From positions 1-10,926 of IMG/VR virus record IMGVR_UViG_2728369607_000012: a stretch of DNA of 10,926 nt; one strand, written 5' to 3'. A program made the position numbers and the translations under genes. The stretch is from a virus (lineage: Duplodnaviria; Heunggongvirae; Uroviricota; Caudoviricetes). This document shows positions 2,641 through 7,785 of the stretch, piece by piece. The notes beneath the pieces are model-generated. The model ran no database searches. It saw only the letters and a program-made list of their open reading frames with translations, and was not told the origin of the DNA. Numbering within the stretch: the first letter of the stretch is position 1; each line of letters opens with the position of its first letter.

Positions 2641-2980
2641 GCTCGTCCTCTTCTTCTGTTTCCGGTGGATTTTTACGGCGGCTTATCGGGTCAAAACCGA
2701 GCAAGGAGGCCATTTTTATCATCACTCTTTCAGCGTCGGATTTTGCGCTTAATGCGGGGTTTCTGCTCTCGCCGCCCTGACTGTTAACAATGCTGAACCC
2801 GCGCGCCGCAAGGTCTGCAACGGCTTTCCGGTAAATGGAGTAGTTGACACAATACAGTTCCAGATTGCTCCAGTCGGCGGGGGTCAGGTCTCCCCGTTCC
2901 GCAAGCTGCCTAGATTTTTCCCGCCACTGCTTCACGGCGATATCATCCAGGTAGGCGGGGGCTTTCGGTGGTCTTGACAT
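2624..2980 (-). CDS. terS: Terminase small subunit, P27-like (118 aa)
   Basis: N-terminus MSRPPKAPAYLDDIAVKQWREK...LELYCVNYSIYRKA resembles P27-family small terminases; acidic C-terminus; sits immediately upstream of and overlaps terL. Confidence 0.8.
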   Translation of the reverse strand: MSRPPKAPAYLDDIAVKQWREKSRQLAERGDLTPADWSNLELYCVNYSIYRKAVADLAARGFSIVNSQGGESRNPALSAKSDAERVMIKMASLLGFDPISRRKNPPETEEEDELDRLE

Positions 2981-3269
2981 GCTTATTTTTTCGCCAGATT
3001 ATTTTTCAAAAAATTCCCGTGCATAAAAATTTGAGGAGGCGTTCGGTGCCCGGCGGGGTCGGGTTTGTCCTGAAAACGCCCCCCACCCCGTCATACAGCC
3101 TCATCAGCGATTGCGGAAACATTCCATAACCTCGCGGTCACGGTCGGTTAATCGCTTCGCTGTGATGCGTTCTGCGCGTCCTGACGCTTTATCTTTATGC
3201 CCTGTTTCCTGTGTCTTCCATGCGTCACGCTGCCTTATAAGTCCACGGATAAGGCGGTTTTGTTCCCGC
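2981..3269 (-). promoter_or_regulatory. Candidate cos / packaging-initiation region (HNH-terS intergenic spacer)
   Basis: 289-bp non-coding gap in an otherwise tightly coupled operon; GC-rich core (ggtgcccggcggggtcgggtttgtcctgaaaacgccccccaccccg, about 3038-3090) flanked by AT-rich sequence. Position between HNH and terS matches where HK97-type cos sites lie. Confidence 0.3.
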
Positions 3270-3710
3270 TCATTCATCAGCGTCATACATCCAGTTATTG
3301 CGGTTAGCGGCCCGTTCTTCCTCTTCACGAAATCCACCTGCGGCACGCTTGCTTTTTGTTGCCGGATCAAGCCATTTCGTTTTCTGGTTATGACACGCCT
3401 GGCACAATGGTTGATGGTTCCATTCGGGCCAGAAGAGAACATCATCACCGCCATTAATCGGGATAATGTGATCCACCACCACGGCGGGCGTATATATCCC
3501 CTTCTCAAGGCATCGCACGCATAACGGGTTTTTACTCAGATACATGGCGCGGTATTTGTCCCACTGTCTGGAATATCCACGCGCGCGGCGGTGTCCTCGT
3601 CTGGCATCCTCTGCACGCCATGCTGCCCGCCTGTGCTCCTCACACTTGCCGGATTTAACGCGCCTGTTACAGCCTGGTTCTGTGCATCGTCTTAATGGTT
3701 GCCACGGCAT
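3270..3710 (-). CDS. HNH endonuclease (146 aa), terminase-associated
   Basis: Cys/His zinc-finger-like N-terminus (CTEPGCNRRVKSGKCEEH) and HNH-type motif (VVDHIIPINGGDD...NHQPLCQACHNQKT); located directly upstream of terS; start overlaps connector stop (TGATG). Confidence 0.85.
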   Translation of the reverse strand: MPWQPLRRCTEPGCNRRVKSGKCEEHRRAAWRAEDARRGHRRARGYSRQWDKYRAMYLSKNPLCVRCLEKGIYTPAVVVDHIIPINGGDDVLFWPEWNHQPLCQACHNQKTKWLDPATKSKRAAGGFREEEERAANRNNWMYDADE

Positions 3711-4006
3711 CAGTACACCCCCACATCACGGTAAGCCGTCCAGAGTGCGCCAATCGTCATGGGTACGCGTGTTTTTGCGTTATCCGCGACAATCTGGCGA
3801 TTCTCATACAGGTGAGCGATAAACATCATGCAGCCAATCTTTATGGCTGGCGTGAACTCCAGCCCGTCATCAAAGCGCCTGCCTATGTGTATCTGGCACG
3901 CCTCAAGCGATGCGGCAATGTATCCGCTGATTAACTGGTCTTCCTCGTCTCCATCGATACGGCAATGGAGTTTCACTTCTTCCAGGGTGATAAGTTCTTC
4001 TGTCAT
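3710..4006 (-). CDS. Head-tail connector protein, gp6-like (98 aa)
   Basis: Size and sequence character (MTEELITLEEVKLHCRIDGDEEDQLISGYIAA...) typical of gp6-like connector proteins; ATGA start/stop overlap with the upstream gene. Confidence 0.7.
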   Translation of the reverse strand: MTEELITLEEVKLHCRIDGDEEDQLISGYIAASLEACQIHIGRRFDDGLEFTPAIKIGCMMFIAHLYENRQIVADNAKTRVPMTIGALWTAYRDVGVY

Positions 4007-4341
4007 TTTTCCGCGCCCTCACGACAAAGAATTTCAAGGCGTGTCCTGGCGACATCCGGCAACGGCTGCCCGATGATATTCAGTACACGCCCCGCCAGCG
4101 GCCCCGTACTGACCTTTATCCGGCTGGTGGCGTTGATGTCCTTCCGGTACCGTATCCAGATCCTTACGGTACCAATCGCCAGCTCTGCGCCCGATGAAAT
4201 GGCCTCCTTGCTGCTGATCATGTTCACGCTTGCCCAGAGTGTGTGACCGTCCTCCCACGTTTCGAGTATTTCGCCCGTCATGGCTCTGGTCTGTTTCAGG
4301 GTCTGAATCGTTATCCTGTCACGCAGTCGCCCTATGTTCAT
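4003..4341 (-). CDS. Head-tail adaptor / head closure protein (112 aa)
   Basis: Sequence resembles phage head-tail joining family proteins. Start chosen at ATG 4339-4341 (ATGA overlap with portal stop, GGGAGA upstream) rather than the longer form from 4383. Confidence 0.7.
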   Translation of the reverse strand: MNIGRLRDRITIQTLKQTRAMTGEILETWEDGHTLWASVNMISSKEAISSGAELAIGTVRIWIRYRKDINATSRIKVSTGPLAGRVLNIIGQPLPDVARTRLEILCREGAEK

Positions 4342-5549
4342 TCCGGTTTTTCTCCCTCGCTGATTTTTACTTCCTGTTTCCATGCCTGACTGAACTCATC
4401 ACCACCATCACGCGGTGACAGTCCTTCACGTTCGCGGGCTTCGTTCGGGCACATAACGCCGGATTTGATGCCGCACTCATAGGTGGCAAAGCGTTCGCCA
4501 GGTGTGGCCCGTAACAGGTCCGCGCTGTCAAACTCCACCTGATACCGGATACCAGGTACAGGCGAGGCCACCAGCAGGGCGTTTTTTATCTGCTGCTCAA
4601 AGTTCGCCAGCCACGGGCGCATCGTCATGGTGAGAAATGCGCGGCTTGCCTCGCTGAAATTGCTGTAGGTGCTGTTGCTGTATTCCTGCAAAAAAATCGG
4701 CGAGACGTTGAACATTCGGGCGATGTCTTCAATGGTAAAGCGACGGGAGGCCAGCCATTCAGCATCCTGATTACTCATGCCCAGCTGCTGATAGCTCATC
4801 CCCCCTTCAAGGATGGGCGTTTTTCCGGCGTTTCTGGCCCCTTTGTAGCGTTCCAGTGCGGCTAATGCCTGTTTGCCCTTCACGCCGTCCAGCCATTCGC
4901 CTGACGTGATAACCCCTGCCGCCATCATGCCATCACGCATCACGCTCGCGCCGTGGCGTTGTTGGGCCAGCCCAAGCCCCAGCGATTCGCGGCAGATGGT
5001 TACAGGTGAGCGCCCCATAAAGCCGTCATCCGTGGAGTAACGAAGGTGAAGTACTTCCCACGGTAAATAGTTGTGGGTGTTTCCGGTGTAGGCGTCAGTG
5101 ATGCAATAGCGCCAGTTGTGTTCGCCTGTCTGCTCCACGTTCACCGACTGCGGCGGGTAAGGATGTAAAGCCGCCGGAAAACCATCACGCCCCCACTGAA
5201 TAACCGCATAAGCATTACCGTTTAACAGGCAGTGGCGGATCATCATTCGCTTAAACTGGTAGGGGGTTTGCCATGCGTTCGGGCGCTCGTTGAGGATGTG
5301 ATCGACCGGATGAGAATCAAGCCACTCGCGGGCCTCCTTCCCCTTCTCATTGCGTACCAGGTACAGGTAGCATGGCATAGTAGCCACCGCCTCAGAGATG
5401 ACCGTAACGGCGTTCATGACGGCAGGCAGTGATTCCGCTGTCCCCGATGATACGTACTCACCCGCCCCCGTGTTCGATGTGCCAGCCAGCGCCATAAATT
5501 CATCAAGCGTCATGCTGCGCTGCTCTTTTTTTCTTCTGAAAGGCCACAT
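4338..5549 (-). CDS. Portal protein, HK97-type (403 aa)
   Basis: Size and sequence typical of HK97-family portal proteins; flanked by prohead protease and head-tail adaptor genes. Confidence 0.88.
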   Translation of the reverse strand: MWPFRRKKEQRSMTLDEFMALAGTSNTGAGEYVSSGTAESLPAVMNAVTVISEAVATMPCYLYLVRNEKGKEAREWLDSHPVDHILNERPNAWQTPYQFKRMMIRHCLLNGNAYAVIQWGRDGFPAALHPYPPQSVNVEQTGEHNWRYCITDAYTGNTHNYLPWEVLHLRYSTDDGFMGRSPVTICRESLGLGLAQQRHGASVMRDGMMAAGVITSGEWLDGVKGKQALAALERYKGARNAGKTPILEGGMSYQQLGMSNQDAEWLASRRFTIEDIARMFNVSPIFLQEYSNSTYSNFSEASRAFLTMTMRPWLANFEQQIKNALLVASPVPGIRYQVEFDSADLLRATPGERFATYECGIKSGVMCPNEAREREGLSPRDGGDEFSQAWKQEVKISEGEKPE

Positions 5550-5550
5550 A

Positions 5551-6123
5551 TCACACCCCCGCTAAATCCACCCACCAGCGGCGATTATCCGCACGCGGCA
5601 TTTTTTCGGGGTGCTGCTCATACAGGGAACGGCGGGCCAGCTCCACGCCGGAATCGGGGTAAGCCGGTACCGATGTAACGGTAATTTCGTACAGTTCCGC
5701 CACCAGCACGGTGCGCACGCATGGATCTGTTGTGGTATCCCATACATCCTTACGGGAGCGAAAGCCAAAGCTCATGCCGGATATATCACCACGTTTAACC
5801 AGTTCGATAACGTCGCGCCCTGTACTGGTATCCGGTGGGGTCAGTTCAAAGCGTAACCCTGTTTCATCCTCTTCCAGTTTCAGCGTGCCGGAACGGGTGC
5901 GCCCCAGTAACATACTGTGGTCATGCTCATACAGGCCGCGAACGTCATTACCCGCCGCAAGCCATTCAGTAAACGCCCCCCGCTGGAATTTTTCGTAAAA
6001 CTCACCCCATAACAGTTCTGAAAGCTTATCCCAGCGAACAACGTAGCCTGTAAGCGTGTTGCTGCCGCTGGTGGTGATTTCCGATGACCGGATTTCCATA
6101 CTCTTCATAATTTTTTCACCCAT
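5551..6123 (-). CDS. Prohead maturation protease, HK97-type (190 aa; exact start uncertain)
   Basis: Sequence typical of HK97-family prohead proteases; sits between major capsid and portal genes. Three ATGs within the first nine codons make the start ambiguous. Confidence 0.82.
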   Translation of the reverse strand: MGEKIMKSMEIRSSEITTSGSNTLTGYVVRWDKLSELLWGEFYEKFQRGAFTEWLAAGNDVRGLYEHDHSMLLGRTRSGTLKLEEDETGLRFELTPPDTSTGRDVIELVKRGDISGMSFGFRSRKDVWDTTTDPCVRTVLVAELYEITVTSVPAYPDSGVELARRSLYEQHPEKMPRADNRRWWVDLAGV

Positions 6124-6162: not shown

Positions 6163-7320
6163 TTAATCGTCGTCCTGTGGCAGTTCCAGAATCTTGATCG
6201 CGTTCGAATCCACCACGCCACCGCCTAAATATTTCTGCGTGAAAATTTTGATGAAACCCGGCTCTGTGAGGTTGTCCGGTCTGGTGCGAACACCTGTTTC
6301 GTGATCAACAATGTAGTAACCGCGTTTGAAGTCACCCAGGGCAATAACGTTATCAGGCATAAACTCCAGATATTCGACCGGAAGGCCCAGCAACGTATCA
6401 GGATCACCCGCCTGTAAACGGTCACGCCAGATGTAATCACCGTTCGCGTTCTTCACCTTCTGGAGTTTTGCCGCCGTCGTGGAGTTAACCACCCAGACCG
6501 CGTTTTTGCGGTATTTTTTACGTAATGCAAATTTCAGGTCGATCAGCGGGTCCGCAGATGTCCACGCCAGAGATTCGGAAGGTTTAATTACCTGCAACGT
6601 ACCAAAATCACGCTCTTTGTCGTTCTTCTCTGCACGGGGTACGGATAAAAAACCTTTTGCTTTTTTGTCACCGTCGCCCACAACCAGATCGCTTTCTTCG
6701 GTTTCCGTGAAGGTGTCGCCAATCTCACCCGTCAGCCATGAAAGGATGTCCACATCGGAAAAATCCACGATTTCCTGTGTGGTGCGCGGGTACGCATAGA
6801 CCGGATACAGCTTAATGCTCACCTCGTTAATCTGCGGGGTGCTGGTCTGTTCGCGTGCCTTACCCTCTTCACCGTGGTTAACGGTCGCACCGCCAGCGGA
6901 AACAAGCTGCTTAAACTCGTTGCTGCTGATTTTTTTCACGGTACAGATGCGGCGCATGGTGGACTCATCCGCCAGCATTCGCATGATTTCGGTGTTCAGT
7001 TCGGGGATAACGGTATAACCACCATCAGCGGGAACGCCTGTACTTAATGCGCGGGTTTCACCTGTCAGAATGTAGCTGCGTAGTTCTGCGGGGTCAGTGG
7101 TCTGGCTGCTTTTACCTGGCTTGCTGCGCTCTTCGTCTGCAATGGCTTCAAGGCGGGAAATGTCTTTATCGAGGGATTCAGCTTTAGCGCGTAATTCGTC
7201 AAATTTTGCGCCCTCAGCATCGTTAAGACTGCGGTTTTCTTTTTCCGCGTTCTCCAGCATGTCGCGCATCTGATTTTTAATGGCGGTTTTCTGCTGGCGT
7301 AATTCGATTATTCTCGGCAT
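6163..7320 (-). CDS. Major capsid protein, HK97-type (385 aa)
   Basis: Size typical of HK97-fold capsid proteins; N-terminal region rich in charged, coiled-coil-like sequence (delta/scaffold-like domain); followed by protease and portal genes. Confidence 0.88.
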   Translation of the reverse strand: MPRIIELRQQKTAIKNQMRDMLENAEKENRSLNDAEGAKFDELRAKAESLDKDISRLEAIADEERSKPGKSSQTTDPAELRSYILTGETRALSTGVPADGGYTVIPELNTEIMRMLADESTMRRICTVKKISSNEFKQLVSAGGATVNHGEEGKAREQTSTPQINEVSIKLYPVYAYPRTTQEIVDFSDVDILSWLTGEIGDTFTETEESDLVVGDGDKKAKGFLSVPRAEKNDKERDFGTLQVIKPSESLAWTSADPLIDLKFALRKKYRKNAVWVVNSTTAAKLQKVKNANGDYIWRDRLQAGDPDTLLGLPVEYLEFMPDNVIALGDFKRGYYIVDHETGVRTRPDNLTEPGFIKIFTQKYLGGGVVDSNAIKILELPQDDD

Positions 7321-7357
7321 AAAAAAAGTCCTGGGGTTAAGTAAGGAACTCCAGGAC
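7321..7357 (-). promoter_or_regulatory. Terminator-like hairpin plus U7 abutting the capsid start codon
   Basis: Minus strand reads GTCCTGG-AGTTCCTTACTTAACC-CCAGGAC then TTTTTTT then ATG. The only SD-like AGGA lies inside the 3' arm of the stem. Confidence 0.4.
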
Positions 7358-7410
7358 GCGGCAAAAACTCAACCGTTTTTCATAAGGGAATCAGCAATCG
7401 CACCGATCGT

Positions 7411-7458
7411 TTTCCCGCCTGGTAATGAATATTGGCGAGCACATTAACAGGCGGGAAA
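7411..7458 (-). repeat. Inverted repeat in capsid-operon leader (11-bp perfect arms, extendable to 17 bp with one mismatch)
   Basis: tttcccgcctg (7411-7421) and caggcgggaaa (7448-7458) are exact reverse complements. Confidence 0.6.
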
Positions 7459-7504
7459 GTGGCCCCAGCGTCCTGGCACCACGGGCGAGAATAATCATGA
7501 TTCA

Positions 7505-7560
7505 GTTCGGGTAAAATATGCCGATCCGCTCAGTGAACAACGTGGAACAACCACGAACAA
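7505..7560 (-). promoter_or_regulatory. Candidate promoter / activator site for the capsid operon: three helically phased TTGTTC hexamers
   Basis: On the minus strand TTGTTC recurs three times at exactly 10-bp spacing (plus-strand GAACAA at 7535-7540, 7545-7550, 7555-7560). The last copy sits 16 bp upstream of a TATTTT -10-like hexamer (plus 7513-7518). Confidence 0.3.
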
Positions 7561-7565
7561 ATAAT

Positions 7566-7601
7566 TTACAAAAAATAACAAAAAGCCGGATTGCTCCGGC
7601 T
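7566..7601 (-). terminator. Rho-independent terminator
   Basis: Minus strand: AGCCGGA-GCAA-TCCGGCT stem-loop (GNRA-type loop) followed by TTTTTGTTATTTTTT; lies downstream of the 53-aa ORF stop at 7624. Confidence 0.65.
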
Positions 7602-7623
7602 GCGTGGTGTGGTTCTGATATTC

Positions 7624-7785
7624 CTACTCTGCTAATTTGCTCAGCCCCATGTCTGCGTAAGTGCGATTTACTGCATTTCTCAGGTCTGCGTAGTTCTCCG
7701 TTGGCGGCTCCGGTGTGCCCTTGCTGCTCTGTTTTACCTGCGGGTCGTCCACCAGCCGCCCGTAAGCTGCAATTTGTGCTGTCAT
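7624..7785 (-). CDS. Small hypothetical protein (53 aa)
   Basis: ATG at 7783-7785 preceded by GAGGTGG with a 4-nt spacer; starts 9 nt after the upstream gene stop; followed by the intrinsic terminator. Below the 60-aa cutoff of the supplied ORF track; found by manual translation. Confidence 0.45.
   Translation of the reverse strand: MTAQIAAYGRLVDDPQVKQSSKGTPEPPTENYADLRNAVNRTYADMGLSKLAE

Follow-up and report, generated by a model that had tools for sequence, protein, structure and literature searches.

The excisionase TorI of KplE1/CPS-53, a small RDF of the winged-helix type, also regulates transcription (PMC2951348). Its sites I3–I5 in the KplE1 attL read caGTTCGtcatgGTTCGcttcaGATCG, recur with a period of 10 and abut a −35 box (PMC2951348); through this array, TorI represses intS. 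In the Gram-negative PICIs EcCICFT073 and EcCIEDL933, AlpA is the master activator, which is needed for induction and activates its own promoter, and overexpression of AlpA alone starts the PICI cycle (PMC6092414; 10.1101/2022.09.08.507074). AlpA of EcCICFT073 activates the alpA promoter region, and the activity of the int promoter is unchanged by it (PMC6092414). Tail-less capsids of capsid-forming PICIs (cf-PICIs) are made in strains without a helper phage. Such capsids were purified from an alpA-overexpressing strain, and packaged capsids arise without a helper after alpA overexpression or spontaneous induction (10.1101/2025.02.11.637232).

In lambda (PR′-QBE-tR′) and in Pseudomonas (PalpB-tB), a promoter-proximal site, a leader and a terminator-like hairpin precede the lysis or structural genes. 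The late promoters of P2 and P4 are weak sigma-70 promoters with the small activator Ogr/Delta bound upstream, centred near −55; we know of no structured leader at these promoters. In the fold-back RNAs of the T4 e gene (lysozyme) and the IS10 transposase gene, the start codon and an SD-like sequence are paired and strands upstream of the promoter are complementary to the start region. The literature searched on cf-PICIs, PICIs and TorI contained neither an AlpA binding site nor the control region of a cf-PICI packaging operon. The control region described here is, in part, a new variation on known elements.

The element and its packaging operon

The window, that is, the whole stretch of 10,926 nucleotides that was analysed, is an Escherichia coli cf-PICI, a phage satellite. 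Its gene layout agrees with that of the published EcCIEDL933-type cf-PICI, and islands 98% identical to the window, which carry int and alpA, are present in E. coli genomes. The major capsid gene of the HK97 fold is located at 6163–7320 on the minus strand (PF05065, E 1.6e-61; RefSeq annotation of related islands); the coordinates given below for the control region refer to this strand as well. It is followed by genes for a protease, the portal, head closure, a connector, an HNH protein, TerS and TerL (Pfam; RefSeq relatives). A RepA helicase and a PerC-like ORF are also encoded in the window (Pfam). The AlpA of the island is an Xis/TorI-like winged-helix protein of 74 amino acids, which belongs to the same family (PF05930) as the AlpA proteins of EcCICFT073 and EcCIEDL933, and the integrase has the arm-binding domain PF13356. 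Positions 7321–7623 (minus strand) are the control region of the capsid-to-terminase (packaging) operon.

Upstream terminator and promoter

The replication and accessory genes end at an intrinsic terminator directly after the stop codon of the PerC-like ORF. The stem-loop (7584–7601; stem AGCCGGAGCAATCCGGCT, seven pairs, five of them GC, loop of 4) is followed by the T-rich tail TTTTGTTATT (7583–7574); a terminator scan identified this element, in line with the terminator described in an earlier reading made from the sequence only. The block conserved in 360 E. coli genomes begins at this stem-loop, and EcCICFT073 carries the same terminator 3′ of PerC. Some cf-PICI families have an insulating terminator just after the boxes (see below) instead of upstream of them. 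As a first layer of control, the terminator would shield the packaging operon from transcription entering from upstream. Just before the boxes lies the invariant 16-mer TTTGTAAATTATTTGT (7557–7572), which is kept at at least 80% of the 101 unique cf-PICI capsid promoters, also where the boxes differ. Matches of the 16-mer to IHF or CRP sites were considered from the sequence and dropped, because the motifs are not conserved.

The operon is preceded by a conserved predicted promoter of the sigma-70 type, TTTACC-16-TATTCT (7515–7488). The −35-like hexamer (TTTACC, 7510–7515) follows the pattern TTT(A/T)C(n) at a fixed spacing of 16 nt in 70 unique variants. The −10-like hexamer (TATTCT, 7488–7493) has the form TAnnnT, with A2 and T6, in all 70 and is always found 5 nt before the first G of the hairpin P1. 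With 8/12 matches, the promoter is weak, and it was not flagged in a consensus promoter scan of the window; the homologous site of another variant (L083, TTTACA-16-TATGTT, 9/12) was flagged. Transcription is predicted to start near 7481, at the foot of P1. The sequence-only reading had also placed a promoter beside the repeats, with the third TTGTTC hexamer as the −35 box and TATTTT (7518–7513) as a possible −10 box. A weak promoter is indeed predicted next to the array, but this −10 box reaches only 7/12 and is confined to the E. coli lineage, whereas the promoter conserved across cf-PICI families lies approximately 25 nt farther downstream. The structured leader of that reading is present too; since its start is predicted from the conserved promoter, its length is approximately 160 nt rather than approximately 185 nt. 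Attenuation by a leader peptide starting at the ATG at 7498 was rejected: the codon is GTG in the variants L059 and L071 and absent in L005 and those of the L054 type, and no SD sequence precedes the ATG.

Phased GTTC boxes as a candidate AlpA operator

Upstream of the promoter, three boxes (ttGTTCG, ttGTTCC and ttGTTCA; 7534–7560) are arranged in 10-bp phase. Their TTGTTC hexamers (7560–7555, 7550–7545 and 7540–7535), which the sequence-only reading had located correctly, recur with a period of exactly 10 and are the only ones in the window with exact TTGTTC-N4-TTGTTC matches. The boxes are located at least 19 nt upstream of the conserved −35 box, and the array is fixed in its position beside the conserved promoter in 101 variants.

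One complete island, L001, has three copies of the array, all on one strand: in the capsid leader, approximately 78 nt upstream of int and in the attR arm. Nine box matches were counted in this island compared to 2.7 expected, a number that 0/100 shuffles reached. Two of its arrays (5936–5961 and 20896–20921 of the island) are located within 71-nt repeats that also hold two copies of TGTGTGGTCAGT. Each att arm carries such a 10-bp-phased GTTC array, close to the arm sites of the integrase. The tandem repeats adjoining the att-arm boxes vary with the integrase type (TGTGTGGTCAGT, GGTGTAGTTAAT or GGTATCCTATA), whereas the GTTC boxes are constant. Islands with another alpA allele carry an array of five to six boxes between int and alpA, and one int–alpA array copy differs from the capsid block in 2 of 27 bases. 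EcCICFT073 has six boxes in the int–alpA intergenic region; its own packaging genes are not preceded by a box array. The arrays of the relatives comprise three to six boxes each, and the TTGTTC boxes are retained in L072, an E. coli cf-PICI whose capsid and leader are of another type. Islands of the Erwinia type have GTAC/TTAC boxes at the capsid gene, together with repeats of the TAC type upstream of int and AAGTACTT repeats ahead of the regulator gene. Under a strict criterion, no copy of the three-box capsid array was found elsewhere in non-E. coli islands, only relatives with two boxes, looser matches or a 20-bp period.

We read the TTGTTC boxes as a candidate operator of the island's AlpA, because box arrays are common to the capsid gene, the att arms and, in related islands, the region upstream of alpA and because they match the mapped TorI sites in core and spacing. 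Like the capsid array, the TorI array consists of three GTTCG-type cores in direct repeat and 10-bp phase beside a promoter, and the recombination arms hold further TorI sites close to those of the integrase. Two properties of an excisionase operator are found for the boxes, namely a series of at least three direct repeats spaced by about one helical turn and copies in the att arms by integrase arm-type sites. The function of TorI, an RDF and transcription regulator in one, is of the same kind as that proposed for AlpA. The two proteins share 31% identity (E 6e-4); TorI falls below the Pfam AlpA model PF05930 and is a distant relative only. TorI acts as a repressor next to a −35 box, whereas AlpA is proposed here to activate a structural operon at a distance, and the capsid array is located kilobases from att, unlike the TorI sites of attL. 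We infer the binding of AlpA from the architecture and distribution of the sites, in analogy to the TorI cores GTTCG/GATCG. An operator that also occurs at the att sites explains the boxes better than a role as alternative −35 hexamers does. They do not always mean activation, since the int promoter of EcCICFT073 is unaffected by AlpA despite the boxes upstream of int. In the packaging operon, AlpA would bind the three boxes cooperatively, the same arrays being used in the att arms and near alpA (second layer). Bound at about −57, −67 and −77, it would activate the weak sigma-70 promoter with its start near 7481 (third layer).

A conserved structured leader

The leader of approximately 160 nt forms a genuine RNA structure that is conserved and shows strong covariation. 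More than 100 sequence variants of it were found across the Enterobacterales, and its covariation score of 0.742 was reached neither by slid controls (≤0.18) nor by any of 500 shuffles. Folded as a whole (184 nt), the leader has a free energy of −68.1 kcal/mol (z −4.7), and 0/200 shuffles were as good. A search of the window and one group-2 leader with the covariance models of Rfam 15 gave only chance-level matches, and the leader was absent from the 50,697 phage records searched.

The predicted 5′-terminal hairpin P1 (7459–7482, −17.0 kcal/mol, z −3.6) carries an invariant GACG loop (7472–7469). Its inner stem, CCAG/CUGG, is replaced by CUCA/UGAG in other families; three pairs are changed on both sides in 24/101 sequences and are 100% paired. 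The long variable hairpin P2 (7411–7458), identified by folding and covariation, corresponds to the near-perfect 17-bp inverted repeat pointed out in the sequence-only reading. Its 17-nt arms (7411–7427 and 7442–7458) are 94% complementary, and the RNA folds with −23.5 kcal/mol (z −5.8). Eight of the nine tested pairs in P2 are changed on both sides, with 95% of the cells paired compared to 33%–46% with slid partners. Because G–U pairs occur only in the capsid-sense strand, a role of the inverted repeat as a cos or pac site was dropped and an RNA favoured. The small hairpin P2b (7389–7408), present in the MFE and centroid structures, is restricted to the E. coli-type leader and absent in the alignment of the other families. 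GGA motifs of the CsrA type were considered from the sequence and dropped because they are not conserved.

The last hairpin, P3 (7328–7357, −14.1 kcal/mol, z −4.2), is built of a GC-rich stem of 7 bp, an internal loop, three more pairs and a loop of 8 nt. Its 5′ arm holds an invariant CGUC (7358–7355 region), and its 3′ arm holds AGGA (7332–7329), the only SD-like sequence near the capsid start. P3 is followed by a U7 tract (7321–7327; U7–U8 in relatives) and immediately afterward by the capsid ATG (7320), so that the hairpin abutting the start codon and burying the SD-like sequence, as the sequence-only reading had it, is found at 7357–7321. A GC-rich hairpin directly before a U-run has the form of an intrinsic terminator; a simple terminator scan missed P3 because of the internal loop. 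The L071 leader, which is 75% identical, retains P3 with a stem of 9 bp and another loop, and two natural E. coli variants (L018 and L032) have disrupted P3 stems. The U-run is present in all E. coli-type leaders including L059 and L071, whereas the other families read GAAACCACUCC-AUG. Since it is absent in most other cf-PICI lineages with the same leader architecture, the role for which the leader is conserved cannot be termination, and a terminator role of P3 and U7 is uncertain. A single consensus last hairpin for all families was rejected, because the E. coli-type P3 uses alignment columns different from those of the others; the last hairpins are thus analogous rather than homologous pairs.

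The GACG loop of P1 and the CGUC of P3 are invariant across 101 leaders, and their complementarity is extended in three leader types. Forcing P1 and P3 to pair costs +6.6 to +10.1 kcal/mol, so the leader is not bistable without help and a spontaneous two-state RNA switch was rejected. In the ground state of the whole-leader fold, the start codon and the SD-like AGGA are paired. As a fourth layer, the transcript would begin with P1 and carry the folded leader composed of P1, P2, P2b and P3, a structure shown by covariation, with a putative function in control. In its ground state, the leader would mask AGGA and the start codon, and in the E. coli lineage, the hairpin and U7 are expected to cause termination or attenuation of a fraction of the transcripts.

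Two strands farther upstream, UCGGCAUA (7524–7517) and GAUUAUUCUCG (7496–7486), can pair with the capsid start region 7321–7306 without a mismatch (8/8 and 11/11), and both lie upstream of the predicted start at 7481. The energies of this fold-back duplex were compared with those of shuffles for 96 leader variants. The duplex stood out in the E. coli type only (z approximately −3.4, p ≤ 0.005); for the other cf-PICI families, the median z was −0.65 and 17% of the leaders reached p ≤ 0.05, which is not significant. Fold-back inhibition was therefore rejected as a family-wide feature.

Discussion

The best explanation for the control region, which on balance we consider probable, is an insulated operon whose weak promoter is activated by AlpA on the GTTC boxes and whose folded leader serves as a second brake. 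A regulated late region had already been suspected in the sequence-only reading, and the terminator, the repeat array by a weak promoter and the structured leader support a late region that is insulated and apparently regulated. The capsid operon is most likely controlled by AlpA, the regulator of the satellite itself, and not by a helper phage. The proposed arrangement resembles that of P2 and P4, in which the late structural operon of a satellite or helper is also transcribed from a weak sigma-70 promoter with a small activator bound upstream. However, Ogr and Delta are zinc-finger proteins that act on TGT-N12-ACA dyads, whereas direct repeats and a candidate activator of the winged-helix excisionase type are found here.

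The sequence-only reading had compared the region with the lambda late promoter and had linked capsid expression to a late regulator of the helper or to small ORFs of the island. In such a gate, the promoter would be constitutive and the terminator read through only with a Q-like antiterminator, from the helper or a small island ORF, that loads onto the polymerase at the promoter. The order of promoter, structured leader and hairpin with U7 before the structural genes is as this requires, helper lambdoid phages encode Q (e.g., quuD in a CFT073 prophage), and antiterminators at high levels can act on heterologous terminators (PMC7969949). Nevertheless, we regard such a gate as highly improbable. 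Neither a Q-family protein nor another antiterminator was found among the island ORFs (Pfam, PHROGs), most cf-PICI lineages with the same leader lack the U-run, and the repeats are located upstream of the conserved −35 box, not between −35 and −10 as are the Q and AlpA elements of lambda and Pseudomonas. Capsids with packaged DNA form without a helper and after alpA overexpression, which speaks against the helper part of the proposal; its other part, a factor encoded on the island, is likely. The analogy to a Q-type helper factor arises partly from the fact that two unrelated proteins are both named AlpA. Pseudomonas AlpA needs an N-terminal ring, has DNA-contact residues up to position 142 and recognizes the six-base element GGGACG (PMC9371919). 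It was rejected as an antitermination model, being a different, much larger 21Q-like protein of about 150 amino acids with a C-terminal HTH: the island AlpA with its 74 amino acids is devoid of the 21Q-like ring, and no GGGACG element is present here. In a PDB search (E up to 1), the island AlpA matched only 8c3t and, by chance, one other entry, and a literature search on 8c3t, the closest solved AlpA, yielded no relevant paper. The boxes might also be arm-type sites of the integrase or purely architectural recombination sites, the capsid copy having no role in transcription. Their presence in both att arms inside the 71-nt repeat, the arm-binding domain of the integrase and the AlpA-independent int promoter of EcCICFT073 are compatible with this explanation. 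It is disfavoured, and in our view distinctly unlikely, because the repeats adjoining the boxes, not the boxes themselves, follow the integrase type. Moreover, the capsid and int–alpA arrays are 1.3–7 kb from the crossover site and are not accompanied by the att-arm tandem repeats, the core of the boxes corresponds to mapped sites of the excisionase TorI, and in 101 variants the position of the array relative to a conserved promoter is fixed.

For the leader, a passive role would be an alternative: a 5′ UTR with a stabilizing 5′ hairpin and spacer hairpins behind a weak, essentially unregulated promoter, in which the hairpin with U7 is a leaky or non-functional terminator and no switching occurs. 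5′-terminal hairpins are a known device for mRNA stabilization, capsids arise spontaneously without a helper, the U-run is lineage-specific, natural variants with a broken P3 exist, and the alternative P1:P3 pairing costs 6.6–10 kcal/mol. The invariance of the GACG loop and CGUC over 101 leaders, with a complementarity extended in three types, speaks against a passive leader; so does the pairing of both the start codon and the SD-like sequence in the ground state, and the insulating terminator and the box array beside the promoter argue for tight control. We therefore consider it unlikely. Tentatively, the leader may instead be a previously undescribed, satellite-specific cis-regulatory RNA, a possibility to which we give limited credence. 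GACG and CGUC would engage in, or compete for, long-range pairing, which would flip the leader between a closed and an open state, set by an island, host or helper factor, and would license capsid synthesis after AlpA has fired the promoter; in the closed state, the terminator would be formed and the SD sequence and AUG masked. A possible lead to a factor that binds the leader is a ProQ/FinO gene adjacent to it in a sister island. Fold-back protection, known from T4 e and IS10, would act differently, in that transcripts reading in from upstream carry 7524–7517 and 7496–7486, pair with the start region and stay untranslated, whereas transcripts from the capsid promoter are translatable. The perfect complementarity, the position of both strands upstream of the predicted start and the duplex energy in the E. 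coli lineage (z −3.4) fit such a protection. Unlike in T4 e and IS10, however, only the E. coli lineage has this complementarity and the start is a predicted one, on which the whole explanation depends; substitutions within this lineage are uncompensated, the duplex is not significant in the other cf-PICI families, and the upstream terminator already limits read-through. Fold-back protection is thus very unlikely.

Taken together, the four proposed layers, with the AlpA-activated promoter as the preferred reading and the leader as second brake, would tie capsid synthesis to the satellite's own master activator. The candidate operator, the predicted promoter and start and the conserved structured leader are directly testable. 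Through the candidate AlpA operator, capsid expression would belong to the same regulon as autoregulation and, by way of the att arms, excision. Since cf-PICIs spread between species by combining their own DNA-filled capsids with borrowed phage tails, the timing and the amount of capsid made set their spread.

Gene content of the island

The packaging gene set of the window lies on the minus strand. According to Pfam assignment, it comprises the large terminase (979–2640), the P27-type small terminase (2624–2980), the portal (4338–5549), the S78 prohead protease (5551–6123), and the HK97-fold major capsid protein (6163–7320); genes for an HNH endonuclease, a head–tail connector, and a head completion protein are located between the small terminase and portal genes. 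The region upstream of the capsid operon contains a RepA-type helicase gene and small ORFs without known function. Near-identical islands are present in 82 E. coli genomes, each covering at least 80% of the window. In L001, a complete sister copy, this gene set is bordered by a gene of the AlpA family and one for a tyrosine integrase (int). Gene set and order are those of published capsid-forming PICIs (cf-PICIs) such as EcCIEDL933.

The gene upstream of the control region is a PerC-family remnant (7624–7785, minus strand, 53 amino acids), which matches profile positions 50–77 of 90. At the homologous place, related islands harbor a full-length PerC of 82–90 amino acids (L001 13601–13873; EcCICFT073). 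The surroundings of this gene, upstream of the capsid promoter, form a recombination hot spot. The HNH and small-terminase genes are separated by about 290 nt (2980–3270, minus strand) with only a small ORF; by analogy to HK97, this gap is the likely site of the island's own cos. Directly downstream of the RepA helicase gene of L001 (14872–15071), three to four copies of the iteron-like repeat CCACTTTTnCnCCCCACTTTT are spaced about 84 bp apart, which is probably the island replication origin.

Predicted promoter region of the capsid operon

The alignment of 101 unique promoter regions, out of 142 unique leaders, revealed a conserved column order: the invariant 16-mer TTTGTAAATTATTTGT, three phased boxes, TTT(A/T)C, 16 nt, TA(n)3T, 5 nt, and the first G of the leader hairpin. 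A2 and T6 of the TAnnnT hexamer were conserved in 70 out of 70 unique variants, and the homologous TTTACA-16-TATGTT of the related locus L083 was the only promoter flagged there. For the window, the alignment predicts TTTACC as −35 box (7515–7510, minus strand) and TATTCT as −10 box (7493–7488, minus strand), which would place the transcription start near 7481. In the alternative taken from the sequence-only reading, the third TTGTTC would serve as −35 box and TATTTT (7518–7513) as −10 box; this combination scored 7/12 and is restricted to the E. coli lineage. The three TTGTTC hexamers themselves were recovered at 7560, 7550, and 7540, and the window has no other exact matches to the phased pair. 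Relative to the predicted start, the boxes would be centered near −57, −67, and −77, a range from which upstream activators work.

The 16-mer (7557–7572, minus strand) precedes the boxes in nearly all 101 variants, even where the boxes differ, and showed no obvious IHF, CRP, or sigma-70 match. The terminator hairpin proposed upstream of the boxes was detected by a terminator scan at 7601–7584, including a T-run. In E. coli, this insulating terminator is located upstream of the 16-mer. Several non-E. coli cf-PICIs instead have a GC-rich hairpin with a T-run (CCCCTGTCTCTGACGGGGGTTTTCTTT) that follows the boxes and precedes the −10-like hexamer (L003 2820–2850; homologous place in L004, L005, and L053).

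Relation of the boxes to recombination sites and proposed role of AlpA

L001 has two further copies of the phased array, one about 78 nt upstream of int and one at the other end of the island; nine matches were counted compared to 2.7 expected, a number reached by no shuffle. Both end copies are part of a 71-nt direct repeat, which also carries two tandem TGTGTGGTCAGT units. The island interrupts the thiM leader (5812–5830 and 21010–21030) with the 13-bp core GAAATACCCGTAT; the array copies at the island ends therefore correspond to the two att arms. We take this leader to be a TPP riboswitch, in which case the insertion parts the 5′ half with the promoter from the 3′ half and thiMD.

Across about 50 related loci of a viral-contig collection, the array was found in four locations, namely upstream of int, in the far end, in the capsid leader and, in some islands, between int and alpA. 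The int-alpA arrays are inverted, comprise up to five to six boxes, and belong to islands with a 59–69% identical alpA allele. The int-alpA copy of L022 differs from the capsid block at 2 of 27 positions, spacers counted. Depending on which integrase type is present, the tandem units adjoining the arrays are TGTGTGGTCAGT, GGTGTAGTTAAT, or, in an Erwinia island, GGTATCCTATA, while the GTTC boxes are constant, which argues for integrase arm-type sites in the former and sites of another protein in the latter. Judged by this distribution, the TTGTTC repeats would represent an operator that is also present at the recombination sites.

The best candidate for binding the boxes is the island AlpA (74 amino acids, PF05930, PHROG "excisionase and transcriptional regulator"). 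EcCICFT073 contains six boxes in the int-alpA intergenic region, and its alpA promoter region is activated by AlpA (PMC6092414). The winged-helix excisionase TorI is related to the island AlpA (31% identity, E 6e-4); since it did not reach a match to the Pfam AlpA model, it is considered a relative, not a family member. The mapped TorI site cores are GTTCG, GATCG, and GTCCG, and one block contains three sites with 2-nt separation adjoining the −35 box of PintS (PMC2951348). In the K-12 sequence, this block reads caGTTCGtcatgGTTCGcttcaGATCGttgaca and is identical to the window boxes ttGTTCGtggttGTTCCacgttGTTCA in core and 10-bp phase.

The TTGTTC boxes are kept in L072, an E. coli cf-PICI whose capsid and leader are of a different type, and the box sequences differ in islands of other genera with this leader type. 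It thus appears that the boxes go with the island background of E. coli and not with the capsid module. An Erwinia island has GTAC/TTAC-type capsid boxes, int preceded by TAC-type repeats, and four AAGTACTT repeats upstream of the gene for an HTH_17 excisionase-like regulator (L060 4685–4757; (A/T)AAGTACTTA(A/G)C with a 20-bp period). The correspondence between its boxes and these repeats is suggestive, not strict, since a three-box search in non-E. coli islands gave no further copies of the capsid array.

Structured leader RNA and predicted masking of the capsid start

The whole leader folds with −68.1 kcal/mol (z −4.7). P1, the first hairpin from the predicted start (7482–7459, minus strand, −17 kcal/mol), has an invariant GACG loop and an inner stem of CCAG/CUGG in the window versus CUCA/UGAG elsewhere. 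P2 (7458–7411, minus strand) is the 17-nt inverted repeat already noticed in the sequence-only reading (arms 7411–7427 and 7442–7458 in the repeat list); its sequence and loop length are wholly different between families, but pairing is retained. Among the 101 sequences, 96.7% of the cells were paired compared to 33–46% with slid partners, and 11 of 13 pairs had changes on both sides. The covariation score of 0.742 (≤0.18 for slid controls) was reached by no shuffle. The leader is a conserved RNA; with G-U pairs in the capsid-sense strand, an RNA structure is favored over a palindrome in the DNA. The leader matches no Rfam family and was found in none of the phage records. In L072, a ProQ/FinO-family RNA-binding protein, a possible partner of a structured leader, is encoded two genes upstream of the capsid leader (3209–3739).

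The last hairpin, P3 (arms 7328–7338 and 7347–7357 in the repeat list; −14.1 kcal/mol as RNA, z −4.2), is terminator-like as described before, with U7 and the capsid ATG directly 3′, and its 3′ arm indeed buries AGGA (7332–7329), the sole SD-like sequence near the start. It is retained with U7–U8 in the E. coli lineage, including the 75% identical L071 leader, in which the loop differs and the stem has 9 bp. In other families, a different hairpin (UGGUUUC...GAAACCA), whose pairs are not column-homologous to those of the E. coli lineage, also adjoins the start and is followed by CUCC-AUG without a U-run. The terminator form is accordingly an addition restricted to the E. coli lineage; the trait shared with the other families is, according to the predicted folds, that the sequence ahead of the start is masked. 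The ground-state prediction has UAUGAAAAA (7384–7376) paired with the U-run and AUG, and AGGA lies within P3.

The P1 loop is complementary to an invariant CGUC in the 5′ half of the last hairpin, and the match extends to 9 bp in the window (7476–7468 with 7359–7351), to 8 bp in the other main family, and to 7 bp in leaders of the L072 type. Covariation cannot prove this pairing, as neither partner varies. When forced, the pairing frees AGGA, the U-run, and AUG at a cost of 6.6–10.1 kcal/mol, so that a factor would be needed if the leader is a switch.

Control of the capsid operon

The elements observed initially were confirmed, and their interpretation in the sequence-only reading is partly supported. 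Control by Q-type antitermination or a helper late regulator is not supported. The Pseudomonas "AlpA" is a processive antiterminator with a 21Q-like fold and DNA-contact residues up to position 142 (PMC7969949, PMC9371919), unlike the island AlpA with its 74 amino acids. Besides 8c3t, the closest solved AlpA, the sole match of the latter in a PDB search (E up to 1) was due to chance, and no antiterminator families were found among the island ORFs. Tail-less cf-PICI capsids are reported to form in strains that lack a helper phage, and EcCIEDL933 capsids have been purified from an alpA-overexpressing strain (10.1101/2025.02.11.637232), so a helper late regulator is not required. Control of the operon by an island factor, also part of the proposal, is likely.

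Ahead of the predicted transcription start, two strands (7524–7517 and 7496–7486) are perfectly complementary to the capsid start (7321–7314 and 7316–7306) and could silence read-through transcripts by pairing with it, similar to the T4 e gene or IS10. Compared to shuffled controls, this complementarity reaches significance within the E. coli lineage (z about −3.4) and not outside it (median z −0.65); we rank this explanation low. Most likely, the capsid operon would be driven by an insulated weak promoter operated by AlpA, with a conserved structured leader that would mask the capsid start and, in the E. coli lineage, may carry an attenuator-like terminator.
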